From Eledone cirrhosa (taxonomy: Eukaryota), in assembly GCA_964016885.1 (NCBI GenBank), contig OZ024754.1:9362001-9426000 (forward strand): a stretch of 64,000 bases of DNA, read 5' to 3'. A program made the translations under genes and the position numbers. Of this stretch, positions 28,019 to 64,000 are shown piece after piece; positions within the stretch are counted from its first letter, which is position 1, and every line of letters begins with the position of its first letter. Under the pieces are notes generated by a model, which made no database searches, was not told the origin of the DNA, and was given only the letters and a program-made list of their open reading frames with translations.

Positions 28019-28164
28019 TTTGTTAGAAGTGCCTACTGACTGTAGGTTTCGCTTTGTACTTAGGCAAGGTGGGTCTTCTGTATGACTGTGTAGCGCCAAA
28101 TATATATATATATATATGTATACAATATATTAACAAATGGAAACTATATTTATAAAACCATATT

Positions 28165-28230
28165 TATTTCATTATACATATTTCAAGGGCCACCAGAGCA
28201 AACTATGGTGCATTTTCATCAGATGAAATA
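28165..28230 (-). ncRNA. Type I minimal hammerhead ribozyme motif
   Basis: Minus strand: UAUUUCAU-CUGAUGA-AAUGCACCAUAGUUUGCUCUGGUGGCCCUU-GAAA-UAUGUAUA-AUGAAAUA; perfect 8-bp stem I. Confidence 0.75.
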
Positions 28231-28324
28231 TAATATAGGTTAGTTTTATAAATAAATATTGACATACCCTTAAAAAATGCAACCATTCTGGTTGGAATCT
28301 TCTGGATAAAACTAACCTATAATA

Positions 28325-28390
28325 TATTTTATCTGATGAAAGTGCACCATAGTTTGCTCTGGTGGCCCTTGAAATATGTATAATGAAATA
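28325..28390 (+). ncRNA. Type I minimal hammerhead ribozyme motif
   Basis: UAUUUUAU-CUGAUGA(28333-39)-stem II-GAAA(28371-74)-UAUGUAUA-AUGAAAUA; stem I has one G-U pair. Confidence 0.75.
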
Positions 28391-28666
28391 AATATGGTTT
28401 TATAAATATAGTTTCCATTTGTTAATATATTGTATATATATATATATGTATATATATATATAAGCAAAGAGATATTTAATTTGTTGGTTATTCAACAAAT
28501 TTATTTATAACAGATTCAAAGCACTCTACAAGGTTCTTCTGGAGTATAATATCAATCATATTAATAAATGGAAACTATATTTATAAAACCATATTTATTC
28601 TATTATAAGAATGGTTGCATTTTTTAAGGGTATGTCAATATTTATTTATAAAACTAACCTATATTA

Positions 28667-28732
28667 TATTTTATCTGATGAAAGTGCACCATAGTTTGCT
28701 CTGGTGGCCCTTGAAATATGTATAATGAAATA
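28667..28732 (+). ncRNA. Type I minimal hammerhead ribozyme motif
   Basis: Identical to 28325-28390. Confidence 0.75.
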
Positions 28733-28861
28733 AATATGGTTTTATAAATATAGTTTCCATTTGTTAATATATTGTATATTTACTCCAATAATTTGTTGAG
28801 TGCTTTATATCAATTATAAAAATATTTTTAGCTTGTTGTATCCCAACAAATTAAATATAAC

Positions 28862-28894
<33 letters not shown>

Positions 28895-28896
<2 letters not shown>

Positions 28897-29085
28897 GGAA
28901 CAAGTAAGACCCCGACGGCTGAGCTCAAGCCGTTTCGACGGCTAATTCGCTGTCGAATTAGCCGTCGAAACGGCTTGAGCTCAGCCGTCGGGGTCTTACT
29001 TGTTCCTATTACCCACTCTACTACCCTAAGTATTGAGTACTTTGGTGCGTTATGGTCCACCTGGTTCCTTACCACATTTCCTTCG

Positions 29086-29121
<36 letters not shown>

Positions 29122-57765: not shown

Positions 57766-58364
57766 ACTTAGCCCATTCTGTCTTCTTTTTATAAGTGTTT
57801 TTGTTTGTTTCTTCTTTAAGAAGGTAGGATGTGATTTAAGGAAGATTTTGGCTCAAATATCCAATAAGAAGGTTCCTCACAGGCTCCTCTTAATTGTTGT
57901 TGCTAATGTTACTGTTGATTATCAATGAAATTCTAGATATCAAGTTAAATCAAGCTAATTGTAGCTCCCTGCCATTCTTCATTAATACAGTCCTTGTTAA
58001 TTCCGTCATTCAATACCCTTAGTCATATGGCTATTTGATCCTCTTACACTCACACCGTTATCTCATTAAGACAATCTACTTCAGTGGAATTCTGCTGACT
58101 TCTATGAATAATGAATCAAAACAACACTAAATTAAACATTACACCTGACATTACAAGGGTTTGGATTAGAGTGTTTCGACAAAAGACCCAAAGTATTTAA
58201 AATTACTAGAATTTTTTTTCAACACACTGGCTGACACGTATGTCTGTATGTGTGTGTGTACATGTATGTGTGTGTATGTCTGTGCATTTGCATACATTTA
58301 TATGTAAGAGTGTATAAATATAAACATGCAAACACAGACACACTTACAAAAATACACACTCACA

Positions 58365-58835
58365 GACATACATTCACACAAATACACATACATTCACACA
58401 AACATACATACATTCACACAAATACACATACATTCACACAAATACACATACATTCACACATACATTCACACAAATACACATACATTCACACAAATACACA
58501 TACATTCACACAAATACACATACATTCGCACAAACATACATACATTCACACATACATTTACACAAACACATACACATACATTCACACAAATACACATACA
58601 TTCACACAAATACACATACATTCGCACAAACATACATACATTCACACATACATTTACACAAACACATACACATACATTCACACAAATACACATACATTCA
58701 CACAAATACACATACATTCACACAAACATACATACATTCACACATACATTTACACAAACACACACATACATTCACACAAATACACATACATTCGCACAAA
58801 CAAACACACATACATTTACACAAACACATACACAC
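58365..58835. repeat. 20-bp minisatellite
   Basis: Unit CACAAATACACATACATTCA. Confidence 0.92.
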
Positions 58836-59068
58836 ACACACACTCACACAGCGTAGCAAATGGAACATCAGCTGCTGTTTTGCTATAGTTTTTTCACTAT
58901 CCCCCTTCCTTCCTATTACACACACATGCATTCACACATTGTGTGACGGATGTAAGTTGCTGAAATTTATATATAGATGATCATGTGTCGTTAGAAGATG
59001 GTGATTGTGATATGAAATTGGATTGAATTAGCAGCTTTCACCATATGTTTGACTACAGAAAAATTAGT

Positions 59069-59519
59069 TTAACCCTTTAGCATTTAAACTGGCCATATCC
59101 GGCCAGAATTCTCTCACCTCTTTCTGTTCAAACTGGCTGTAACTGGCCACTCATACTGATGTTAAGGTATCGTTCTCAAAATAAATAACACCGTGAGATA
59201 ATATGTGATGCGCATGAAAGATGACCACTGGGTAAAGAAGTGCCAAGAAATCCCAGTAGAAGGAAGATGCAGTAGAGGAAGACCACGAAAAACATGGGTG
59301 GAGGTGGTGAGAGCAGACCTCAGATTGCTGAAGCTCATGGAGGAGATGACGAAGGGCCGTGACAAGTGGAGAGATGCTGTGCTGAATAGGACCCGTCCCA
59401 TCCTTGTAAGCTGGGAAAAGTGGACGTAAAATGATGATGATGATGATGAGGAATTAAGTGAGATAAAGCCGTAAAAATACAATAGTATATAGAGAGTAAT
59501 GTAAATGCTAAAGGGTTAA
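59069..59519 (+). mobile_element. piggyBac-like MITE interrupted by an RTE fragment
   Basis: TTAA/CCCTTTAGCATTTA TIRs at both ends. Confidence 0.88.
59203..59450 (+). mobile_element. RTE LINE 3' fragment (ORF C-terminus plus (GAT)n tail)
   Basis: VMRMKDDHWVKKCQEIPVEGRCSRGRPRKTWVEVVRADLRLLKL...RDKWR. Confidence 0.9.
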
Positions 59520-59789
59520 TAATAGGGTGTATAAACCCCAGAATGGAAGAAAATGACTATTCATCAGACTGTAGCCCTGCAGTCTAGGACACAGGTAGCT
59601 CTTTTAATTACAGGTACAATTCATTTTTGCCAGTTGAGTGAACTGGAGCAATGTGAAATAAAGTGCCTTGCTCAAGGACAATGCGTGCTGCTGGGAATCG
59701 AACTCACAACCTTACGATCGTGAGCTGAATTCCCTAACTACAAAGTCACGCACTTTCACATGTGAAAAGGGGAACTATAGAGACACATA

Positions 59790-60465
59790 AATAATTGTTT
59801 CGACTTTTGGCACAAGGCCAGCAATTACACAATGCATTACTGGTACTTTATTTTATCGACCCCATAAGGATGAAAGGCAAAGTTAACCTCGGCGGGATTT
59901 GAACTCAGATCATACAGGGAGGTAACTCTATGCTTCAAAACATGGCGTCCGACCCTCTACCGATACTGCCAATCCACTGCCTTTCGAGACACATAAATAA
60001 TTGTTTCTACTTTTTGGCACAAGGCCAGCAATTACCCAGTACATTACTGGTACTTTATTTTATCGACCCCGTAAGGATGAAAGGCAAAGTTAACCTCGGC
60101 GGGATTTGAACTCAGAATGGCAAGGGCCGTAACTCTATGCGTCAAAGCATGGCGTCCGACCCTCTACCGATACTGCCAATCCAATGCCTTTAGAGACACA
60201 TAAATAATGATTTCTAGTATAGGCACTAGTACTGGTACTTTATTAGTAATGCACCTAGTATAGGCACAAGGGCAGTAATTTGGGAGGAGGTGAAAGTTGA
60301 TTAAATCAACCCCAGTATGTTACTGGTACTTTATTTTATCGACCCTGTAAGGATGAAAGGCAAAGTTAACCTCAGCAGGATTTAAACTCAGACTGTAAAG
60401 AGCCGTAACTCTATGCTGCAAAGCATGGTGTCTGGCTCTACCAATACTGCTAATCCACCGCGCCC
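59790..60465 (-). mobile_element. Three head-to-tail family B SINEs
   Basis: Copies at about 59790-59982, 59995-60190 and 60260-60465, delimited by GAGACACATAAATAAT. Confidence 0.85.
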
Positions 60466-61653
60466 CCTTATAGAGACACAAATTATGAGAACAATTATAT
60501 ATTTGGTTTCATTTTGTAAAGACAAAAATTAAAACTACAGGCAATGTTAAATCTTTTCACAAAGAAGTTAATATCATGTTTCTTGCCAAATTGACATTAT
60601 GGCGGCCATTATTTGCTTCATTATGCCTTTGTTTGTTTGCACGTATGTTTATATCAACATACATATACATAAATATAGGTAGAGAGATAAAGAAATATAT
60701 ACATATAGATAGGCTAATATACATAATTAGAGGAAGCTAGATAGATAAGCAGATATTAGTTTAGTTTTAGTATGTAATACATGAAATGCTGTATGTTTTA
60801 GAGATATAAAAATGATTTATCCATGAGCGTAACTGCTATAGACGAAAATAGTTGCAATAGTGTTATGTAAATGTACATGTAGTTACATATTAAAATATAC
60901 TGGGGAACAACACAATCTATTCTATAATATTATAAATAAAACTATTTATGGTTCCAAACATTCATTAGTGTTTTGTATGTCTAGTTAACTCATCAGTAGA
61001 GAAGAAATGATAGATGGCATTCATATGACTACTATCTATAGGAGTATTTAATAAAATATTAAGGTGCAGGACTAAGTAGTTAAGGGGTTGGGTTCATTAT
61101 TCTAAGTTCACGAGATCAATTCCCAGAAAAGCCAGCACATTGTTTCCTTGAGCAAGACACTTTATTTCACATTGCTACAGTTCACTCAGCTGGCAAAAAT
61201 GAATTTGTACCTGTAATTCAACTGGCCAGTTTTGTCACACATTGTGTCACACTGATTCATCATCATCATCATCATCATCACTGTTTTACGTCCATTCTTC
61301 CACACTAGCATGGGTTAGACGGGTTGTCCTGTTGTGGACAATGCCAGGTCAGGTGACCATGTCTCGCTCGTACAGAACTGTTTCTGGCAGGTTTTCTATG
61401 GCTGGATGCCCTTCCTAACACCAACCACATTTACAGTGTGGACTGGGAGCCTTTTAACCGTGTCTCCTACACGACCACTTTACAGTGAGGGCTGGGTGCT
61501 TTTTGTCGTGTCTCCCGACCAATCTTGCCTCAAGTAGGACAAAACCGTCCAACCCATGCTAGCAGCATGGATGATGGACGTTAAACAATGATAATGATGT
61601 TGATGATAAGCTAGGATCAATATATGTATATATTATATATATGTATATATATA

Positions 61654-61844
61654 TAACAAAGGAAATGTGGTAAGGAACCAGGTGGACCATAACGCACCAA
61701 AGTACTCAATACTTGGGGTAGTAGAGTGGGTAATAGGAACCAGTAAGACCCCGACAGCTGAGCTCAAGCCGTTTCGACGGCTAATTCAGTCCAGAATTAG
61801 CCGTCGAAACGGCTTGAGCTCAGCTGTCGGGGTCTTACTGGTTC

Positions 61845-61847
<3 letters not shown>
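61654..61847. mobile_element. Second copy of the 28.9-kb GC-rich palindromic element
   Basis: Perfect palindrome at about 61735-61847, plus the same flank as 29007-29090. Confidence 0.8.
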
Positions 61848-61923
<76 letters not shown>

Positions 61924-62253
61924 TTCATAAGGCTTAGTGGTTAGAGAATTTGATTCCCAATCCTGAGGTTGTGAGTTTGATTCCTGGACTGTGTGAGGCA
62001 TTATGTCATTGAGCAAGTCACTTTATTTCACATTGCTCTTTTTGCTAAGAGTTGCAAACAGTAAATATTATCACCAATGGAAAGACCATTGAAAAAATTG
62101 TATTCTTGGGTCAATTTGAAGAGTTCCACTCAGCTCAGTAATGAAATGAGGTCCAAGGTCTTGTTGATCGATTCAATCAATTGATGTAAAGCTAGATATA
62201 TGTATAGGTCTTTAGATATATACACTGATAGACTTTAAGCGAAAGAAGGTACA

Positions 62254-62484
62254 TACAGGATGGGCCAGAATTCATAACTCACTTGATTATTTATAGATCT
62301 ATTAACACAAAATGTTATGAAACAAGTTAAGGAATATAATACCATATACAGGCATAAGATCACGAACAAGATACGTTAAGCACACAAATGTACACATTTA
62401 ATTAATGCGCTGCTTAGTTAAATAGAATAAGCATGTTGAGAAATATAACTAAGAAGCGAGTCATGAATTCTGGCCCAACCTGTA
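62254..62484. mobile_element. Tc1/mariner-type MITE
   Basis: TA-CAGGATGGGCCAGAATTCATAACTC ... GAGTCATGAATTCTGGCCCAACCTG-TA. Confidence 0.85.
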
Positions 62485-62961
62485 GATTAAAAACAAGAAA
62501 GATATAGCATTAGATAATTCAATTCTTCCATTACTGTTCAGTTAAAACCAACATGATAAAAAAAAATAAATTGGTAGCAAAAGTATGAAAAAGCTTGATA
62601 CAGATACAATAATAGTAATGATTAGATAAAGACTGATAATAGCTCTTAGCAAGTTCAGCAACATAATCATTAGTATAACTAGTTCCCTTGTTCTTTAACC
62701 AGTTAACCTTTAGGCTATAACCACTCAATGACCGGATCTTGTTTGGAAACTAATGCAATAAATAGTAATGGAAACAGATGTACAGTTATCGCTACCATCT
62801 TATAAATCGCTATCACTATATACATACATAGATGTATATAAAAGTATATATATATATATATATATATATATAAGTATATATATAAGTATATATATATATA
62901 AGTATATATATAAGTATATATATATATAAGTATATATATATATAAGTATATATATATATAA

Positions 62962-62997
<36 letters not shown>

Positions 62998-63390
62998 ATA
63001 CTTGGGGAGGGTCATATTTTTGTAATATTGCCAGAATTAATAACAGAACACACTCACTGTTTGGTTGGTTTTCGCTTCTCGCTGTCTTTTATTATATCTG
63101 CGATCTAACTTAATCGGTCCTCAATGTTGCCATTGACTGCCGACGGTCAAAAAATAATACAGATACAATATAGACACAAACACATATATATAGTTTACAT
63201 AATTTACATAAATCTTTTGTTGTACATCTGCAACATCGTCAGTGGTGTTATATTTTTTCCTCCTGTTGTGTTGTATGTCTACGCCATTTTTTATTCAGTC
63301 TGTCTATATATTTATTTATTTATTTGCTTGTTTGTTTATTTTATTTTGTCTTCTTTGCGCATGCGCCGCTATATATATATATATATATAA

Positions 63391-63444
<54 letters not shown>

Positions 63445-63589
63445 TTTGAGTATATGTTGGTTGTATACCAACACCTCAGTATGCAGATTGGAGCACTCGA
63501 CGAAGTGCGCAGGTTGGTTTGGTTACTCCGGAGTAATGTAAAATAAAATAAAATAAATAAGTCAAATGTTTAAAATTTAGCTTCGTTTA

Positions 63590-63950
63590 TTACTGCTATA
63601 TATATTTCGGTGACAGCCATCTTTGGCTGTGACCTCTTTAGGCAGTCCGAATTAGTGTGGTAGAGACGAGTACACATGTTGTTGAGGTGTTTAACTTTGT
63701 CAATACTCTGATATGCCCAGTTCCTGGTTGGGTTGTTGTTTCACTGAGGAACTGGAATCATATCTCTTCCAATCATATATGATTCCAGTTCCTCAGTGAA
63801 ACAACAACCCAACAAGGAACTGGGCATATCAGAGTATTGACAAAGTTAAACACCTCAACAACATATGTACTTGTCTATACCACATTAATTCGGACTGCCT
63901 GAAGAGGTCACAGCCAAAGATGGCTGTCACCGAAATATATATAGCAGTAA
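63590..63950. repeat. About 360-bp inverted repeat (arms about 174 bp, loop about 13 nt); PLE-like inverted pseudo-LTR
   Basis: Arms are reverse complements with few mismatches; each outer end carries a hammerhead motif. Confidence 0.9.
63894..63948 (+). ncRNA. Type I minimal hammerhead ribozyme motif
   Basis: ACUGC-CUGAAGA-GGUCACAGCCA(AAGA)UGGCUGUCACC-GAAA-UAUAUAUA-GCAGU: 5-bp stem I, 10-bp stem II, palindromic stem III, AUA cleavage triplet. Confidence 0.8.
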
Positions 63951-64000
63951 AATATAGTATAAAATATATATATACATACATACATATATATATATACATA

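Follow-up and report, generated by a model that had tools for sequence, protein, structure and literature searches.

Near the right-hand end of a 64,000-nucleotide stretch of Eledone cirrhosa DNA (the window) lies a long hairpin that carries a hammerhead ribozyme motif at either end, one with an intact core and one with a mutated core. A sequence-only reading of the window had taken this structure for a non-autonomous palindromic retroelement that could cleave itself on one strand only. The locus raises the question of how such a palindrome arises and what its two motifs can still do. The analysis described here indicates that it is a known kind of insertion, namely a stub of a Hydra-type Penelope-like element (PLE) with two arms placed head to head, in which both hammerheads are predicted to be silent.

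Anatomy of the inverted repeat

The two arms of the inverted repeat (63590-63763 and 63777-63950) are 174 nt long each, are 97% complementary with differences at six sites, and enclose a spacer of 13 nt. The RNA fold of the repeat is predicted at -316 kcal/mol (z = -39.5), and 0 of 100 shuffled sequences folded equally well. The near-perfect palindrome seen in the sequence-only reading stands for these arms, but the element does not stop at 63590, as its minus-strand copy extends about 149 bp further, to about 63441, where (TA)n begins (Table 1). This long arm, 63441..63763, matches a natural copy of the family (L013) at 97.9% and the 3' end of a full-length copy (L056) at 91.5%. The right arm ends at position 368 of the natural copy used as reference (ref), which is 7 nt past the cleavage site and about 50 nt short of the usual end at 415-422, probably owing to a later deletion in AT-rich sequence. 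The insertion flanks are (TA)n-like, a sequence in which a target-site duplication is indistinguishable, and (TA)n is also found in the 3' flanks of other arms of the family, in agreement with the (TA)n target proposed earlier.

Table 1. Features of the hairpin locus and its flanks, in window positions; ref denotes the reference copy.
Feature	Position	Strand	Basis
(TA)n target array, left flank	63370..63440	.	sequence
Long arm: 5'-truncated PLE 3' end (pLTR), reaching the family's long end	63441..63763	-	alignment
One-sided tail (about 100 bp) separating the short 3' end of the family from the long one	63441..63542	-	sequence reading, boundaries approximate
ACTC-N32-GAGT-GC hairpin just past the short end	63493..63534	-	motif position, fold
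Minimal type I hammerhead, G5A at 63639, predicted inactive	63592..63646	-	folding; published effect of G5A
13-nt junction spacer; the 5'-truncation points on either side of it both lie at the CATATG hot spot	63764..63776	.	
Short (inverted) arm: second 5'-truncated pLTR piece	63777..63950	+	ref 195-368
Minimal type I hammerhead, core intact, predicted cut 63943/63944, dimer needed	63894..63948	+	core, folding, covariation
Right flank: AT-rich / (TA)n, (TACA)n	63951..64000	.	sequence

The junction and the G5A change are known from the assembly alone, as the family is repetitive in reads; coverage in public reads and contigs (four runs) is family-wide and not locus-specific, and repeat-rich parts were skipped. 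A fold-back artefact of the assembly was considered and rejected, since the arms differ at six sites, four of which are family polymorphisms, and since their ends differ as well.

The window holds several further elements of interest. An inverted pair belonging to a sister hammerhead family with a CTGATGA core lies between (TA)n arrays at 28030-28420 and 28570-28870, and a third copy, in direct orientation some 340 bp further downstream, places two same-strand motifs close together. Two stubs of another family (28897-29090 and about 61650-61847), flanked by (TA)n, each combine a short palindrome with a one-sided tail and an ACTC-N16-GAGTAC hairpin. Furthermore, a highly repeated non-coding element with very deep read coverage is found between (TA)n arrays at 62997-63286, and three tandem copies of a short coding-like piece lie on the minus strand at 43006-43452, which we take to resemble the C-terminus of a LINE ORF.

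The hammerhead motifs and their predicted activity

On the plus strand every element of the intact type I hammerhead that the sequence-only reading had proposed can be read from the sequence. Stem I pairs ACUGC (63894-98) with GCAGU (63944-48), the core segments CUGAAGA (63899-63905) and GAAA (63932-35) are present together with the UH site and stems I and II, and stem III is formed by the palindromic AUAUAUAU. Stem II, first described as 10 bp long, is indeed there, but it consists of 3 bp, a C.C mismatch and 7 bp, closed by the loop AAGA. The minus-strand copy fails the minimal type I core at G5, as had been noticed, and the view that this change is inactivating agrees with a published hammerhead in which G5A is reported to abolish cleavage (PMC4027429). 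Each motif alone folds stems I and II at -18.7 kcal/mol (z about -3.4).

An Rfam search, which had been suggested as a check, returned no hammerhead family among 45 matches up to E = 10 in 60000-64000, and the motif call therefore depends on core sequence, folding and covariation. The miRNA families among the Rfam matches were rejected, being below their gathering scores and of a generic long-hairpin type. When a different letter is placed at position 7, the core pattern is matched 11,020 times, compared with 11 times for the reversed control, and the matches divide into at least four sister families; ORF-related fragments are also present in 6 of 30 sampled sister-family loci. In a small covariation set of seven hand-picked sequences from five families, with the structure taken from the window's copy, 13 of the 15 stem I and II pairs change on both sides, and 89.5% of the pairing cells pair in the alignment, where shuffles give 67.9% and slid controls no more than 53%. 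The only common variant of the motif within the family replaces the closing G-C pair of stem II by G-U. Since the stems covary across sister families, the hammerhead is likely a real ribozyme in the parent element, with cleavage as its predicted function, and the comparison of copies indicates that selection acts on the motif in the source elements. The core conservation and covariation by which the sequence-only reading was to be judged are thus both present.

The motif closely resembles the minimal type I hammerheads described for metazoan PLEs, which combine a short stem I, a long stem II and a palindromic stem III with dependence on dimers (Cervera and de la Pena 2014, PMC4209133). It differs from the hammerheads described there in its 8-nt, purely AU palindromic stem III and in the C.C mismatch of stem II, which is kept across the sister families.

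Counts of the exact 22-mer core give 7,836 intact copies, 62 copies with G5A (0.8%) and 131 copies with a control G>A change in stem I, whose neighbouring bases differ from those at G5. As G5A is rarer than the control mutation, it looks like ordinary decay by a later mutation. A G5A subfamily was rejected on the same counts and because nine sampled G5A arms include long as well as short ones. One inverted pair elsewhere in the genome (L062, G000:C1:13255561-13256131) carries G5A on both arms, yet these arms are told apart by a two-base subfamily marker at a distance of 8 nt; this hints at conversion between arms.

Whether the locus could cleave at all was approached by folding. In a monomer the probability of stem III is about 0.005 in silico, whereas two copies of the motif cofold through the 8-bp palindromic stem III at -44.6 kcal/mol against 2 x -18.7 (-37.4) kcal/mol, so that the dimer is favoured by about 7 kcal/mol in the prediction, as expected for the dimer-type minimal hammerhead of the sequence-only reading. 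Minimal PLE hammerheads are reported to have no activity as monomers and low activity as dimers, and dimer action has been proposed for them (PMC4209133); the hammerhead of the parent element would likewise act as a dimer, probably with help from protein. In a transcript of the full hairpin, on either strand, the pairing probabilities of the hammerhead stems are 0.0, and enforcing the hammerhead fold costs 72 kcal/mol on the plus and 69 kcal/mol on the minus strand, compared with 2.7 kcal/mol in one arm alone. Moreover, read-through transcription in either direction makes the antisense arm ahead of the hammerhead. Both motifs are therefore predicted to be sequestered in the 174-bp duplex, with no cleavage on either strand, and the cost of about 70 kcal/mol renders the proposed one-strand cleavage unlikely; it would need a transcription start inside the hairpin and a partner motif.

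The same duplex, if transcribed, could suggest that the stub has been co-opted by the host as a source of long dsRNA (an editing substrate or a source of small RNAs) or to serve as a regulated ribozyme within a transcript of the host. Each 174-bp arm has a single private change, as under neutral decay, and no neighbouring gene was identified among the ORFs of at least 130 aa in 40000-64000, so that co-option appears very unlikely.

The parent family and its insertions

The right arm was searched against the 3.0-Gb genome, with 40 of 1,107 first-look candidates scored, and longer copies traced upstream led to reverse transcriptase (RT) and GIY-YIG fragments. With the endonuclease as query, 150 matches of 94-100% identity were scored, several of them in frames of 770-896 aa, and five endonuclease-containing regions were fetched from these matches. 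In two of these (L056 and L057), an unbroken ORF of about 892 aa is succeeded by a stretch of about 1.4 kb whose end is the pseudo-LTR (pLTR) of the locus (91.5% to the window); both copies have the hammerhead at their 3' ends and are also flanked by an inverted pLTR copy. L059 has a partial pLTR upstream of its ORF, and L058 is truncated and gave no pLTR match. The linkage of the arm to a PLE ORF with RT and GIY-YIG, which the sequence-only reading had suggested looking for, is thus found, and the proposed origin from a PLE pLTR is confirmed in that the same pLTR ends full-length copies. In the 64-kb window, tblastn found no remnant of the family's ORF.

The L056 element spans about 3304-7486 (4.2 kb) and has a single ORF (3419-6094, 892 aa) comprising an RT with a GIY-YIG endonuclease at the C-terminus. 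The ORF contains RWK (37), DKT (120), YRDD (351), the linker CNCRNPESC (752, CxCX5C) and, in the endonuclease, YIG (786), CKLC (850, CxxC) and CRH (878, CxH); a motif search gave no match to GxKF, one form of the GxKF/Y motif that the Hydra clade does not conserve. With Pfam, an ORF fragment matched GIY-YIG at E = 0.001, which is below the curated cut-off, and the whole 892-aa ORF matched neither RT nor GIY-YIG, while a protein search with the ORF returned 44 relatives, of which hardly any bears a name, and so yielded no clade name. Between RT and endonuclease, L056:3419-6094 contains low-complexity stretches rich in R, G, P and N, which by eye are apparently absent from the published Hydra rows.

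RWK, DKT in place of DKG, CxCX5C, CxxC, CxH, a C-terminal GIY-YIG, a pLTR hammerhead and a (TA)n target are features that the family has in common with the Hydra clade as described by Craig et al. (2021, PMC8557442), and by eye the 892-aa ORF follows the Hydra rows of the alignment given there. Hydra elements are characterised in that description as "generally short (<3 kb)", a typical and not a defining trait; the family of the locus is longer (about 4.2 kb and 892 aa), includes a low-complexity insert as well as a long 3' UTR, and has a tail of about 100 bp compared with the 30-40 bp given for the clade (PMC8557442). Hydra-1_Obim, presented in the same paper, is a different family whose hammerhead differs from that of the locus. 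Naiad PLEs, in contrast, have an N-terminal endonuclease and no canonical hammerhead, whereas the family of the locus combines a C-terminal endonuclease with a hammerhead. Judged by its motifs, the parent appears to be an abundant PLE with Hydra-clade protein motifs that has full-length copies in the genome.

Across this family, 176 aligned pieces from 102 loci were mapped onto the reference copy, and leaving out a tandem duplicate, locus-edge pieces and pieces not covering the hammerhead zone gave 116 arms. The 3' ends of these arms cluster at two positions separated by about 100 nt, 58 at the short and 54 at the long one, with the right arm of the window belonging to the four others, and 36 of 39 head-to-head pairs consist of one long and one short arm. 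Among the 5' ends inside the pLTR, 33 of 67 lie at ref 193-196, a palindromic CATATG; 30 loci came from a query starting at CATATG, and loci retrieved by pattern show the pile-up as well. None of the 176 arms begins or ends within 2-3 nt of the cleavage site, from which we infer that the templates were uncleaved RNA.

An ACTC...GAGY-RC-type hairpin lies just past the short end, with N32 at this locus and with N12 and N19 in two sister families, and the other stub family of the window has an N16 version. A GCTC-N11-GAGC-GC hairpin after the long end of L059 matches the motif but was rejected, its fold not being significant (z = 0.2). In sister families (L103-L132) the short 3' end lies about 50-55 nt past the cleavage site, and the intervening sequence differs.

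These copies bear directly on the idea of a non-autonomous element mobile as a palindromic unit with one-strand-only cleavage. Short palindromic stubs are common in the family and an identical hairpin exists 13,303 bp downstream, as such an element would have it. This second hairpin, the only identical one found, nevertheless belongs to a tandem block at least 10 kb long, whose copies repeat every 13,303 bp and are 99.9% identical, and the junction points and spacers of the 39 inverted pairs vary between loci, which argues that each palindrome forms at insertion instead of spreading as a unit. In addition, the same pLTR also ends full-length coding copies, the G5A core is rarer than the control mutation, and the duplex buries both motifs, so that the idea must be regarded as extremely improbable. 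The tandem duplication, which contains the locus, covers 58934-64000 of the window and continues on its contig (G000:C14) to at least 9444800; it may be real or an assembly duplicate.

Animal non-LTR retrozymes (10.64898/2026.07.22.740005) are, like the locus, non-coding, PLE-derived and equipped with a type I hammerhead. They consist of head-to-tail tandem units with hammerheads on the same strand, whereas the locus is one inverted pair, and tandem monomers were not found in 58000-64000.

Origin of the two arms

The locus is thus very probably a truncated PLE insertion, in which two hammerhead-bearing ends lie head to head in a TA repeat, probably through one target-primed event and likely followed by the G5A change. 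Inverted, 5'-truncated PLE copies with a tail have been published (PMC8557442; PMC3846280), as have pairs of opposite-strand hammerheads 100-700 bp apart (PMC4209133). The inverted pLTR insertions described for endonuclease-containing (EN+) PLEs (PMC3846280; PMC8557442, legend to Fig. 2) have head-to-head arms, a palindrome at the junction and a tail on one arm in common with the locus; in contrast to them, the ORF is wholly lost here and the arms carry different subfamily haplotypes.

A course of events can be proposed in which the endonuclease would nick (TA)n on both strands and reverse transcription would start internally on uncleaved RNA, at the long site for one strand and at the short site for the other. 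The palindromic CATATG would then serve as the microhomology for joining the two aborted cDNAs, with 13 bases added at this locus, G5A would arise on one arm after insertion, and any read-through RNA of the stub would form the 174-bp duplex that hides both motifs. Two primings and joining at CATATG would give the observed structure, although the atypical right-arm end at ref 368 speaks against this account insofar as a further step has to be assumed for it, for instance a later deletion. The purified protein of a Poseidon-clade PLE is reported to cleave and extend both target strands, to start at two internal sites of the RNA by which the tail is defined, to form a predicted dimer and to insert without hammerhead cleavage (PMC11167929). 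This in vitro mechanism must be transferred with caution, as it belongs to a Poseidon-clade element whereas the family of the locus has Hydra-clade motifs.

The haplotypes of the arms bear on how many templates were involved. Four of the six differences between the arms (63814, 63865, 63872 and 63877) switch at linked subfamily sites between the two commonest haplotypes of the group, C-G-C-C on the left and A-A-T-A on the right, with a rough upper bound of about 1e-3 for chance; the other two are private changes, G5A on the left arm and 63885 C>T on the right. The four linked differences are not explained by one template plus later mutation. In an older group of insertions, arms of the same locus are discordant at 31 of 381 segregating sites (8.1%), compared with 22.2% for random pairs of the same group, and have rare alleles in common about eight times more often, which supports a common source for the arms of a locus and fits fold-back and two-template models alike. 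The discordance at other sites is 2.4%, lower than the 8.1%, with CpG sites responsible for part of the excess, and at least three haplotype switches occur in 4 of 22 older pairs, all four from the search with this arm and hence from a biased sample. Such a mix could come from two RNAs, from two pLTRs in one RNA or from later gene conversion.

The same insertion could also have been made on a single template, by self-priming at a junction palindrome as in the published model of Arkhipova et al. (2013, PMC3846280), with the arm differences acquired by later mutation and gene conversion. The palindrome TCATATGA at the junction hot spot and the closeness of same-locus arms are in line with such fold-back, which would however require a later conversion tract to account for the four haplotype switches and would by itself leave the pattern of one long and one short end unexplained; we consider it possible, if somewhat doubtful. 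Equally tentative, and on balance still rather unlikely, is the proposal that a dimeric RT-endonuclease copies two RNAs or two pLTRs, one per nicked strand, starting beside the ACTC...GAGY-RC hairpin and without fold-back; if so, the two haplotypes of this locus would be a direct record of it. Among the titles and abstracts of the literature searched, a scope that most subscription papers fall outside, none addresses arm haplotypes of inverted PLE insertions.

Taken together, the locus itself matters little, since stubs of this known kind number in the thousands. The parent family is useful for its intact-looking ORFs, for a hammerhead core present in roughly 7,800 exact copies and for its two sharp 3' ends, all the more as the formation of tandem and inverted PLE structures is named as an open task by Craig et al. 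(PMC8557442). Where the two arms differ in their subfamily markers, genomes provide a test between one-template fold-back and two-template priming, and two-template priming, if true, would make the origin of PLE inverted repeats testable from genomes alone.
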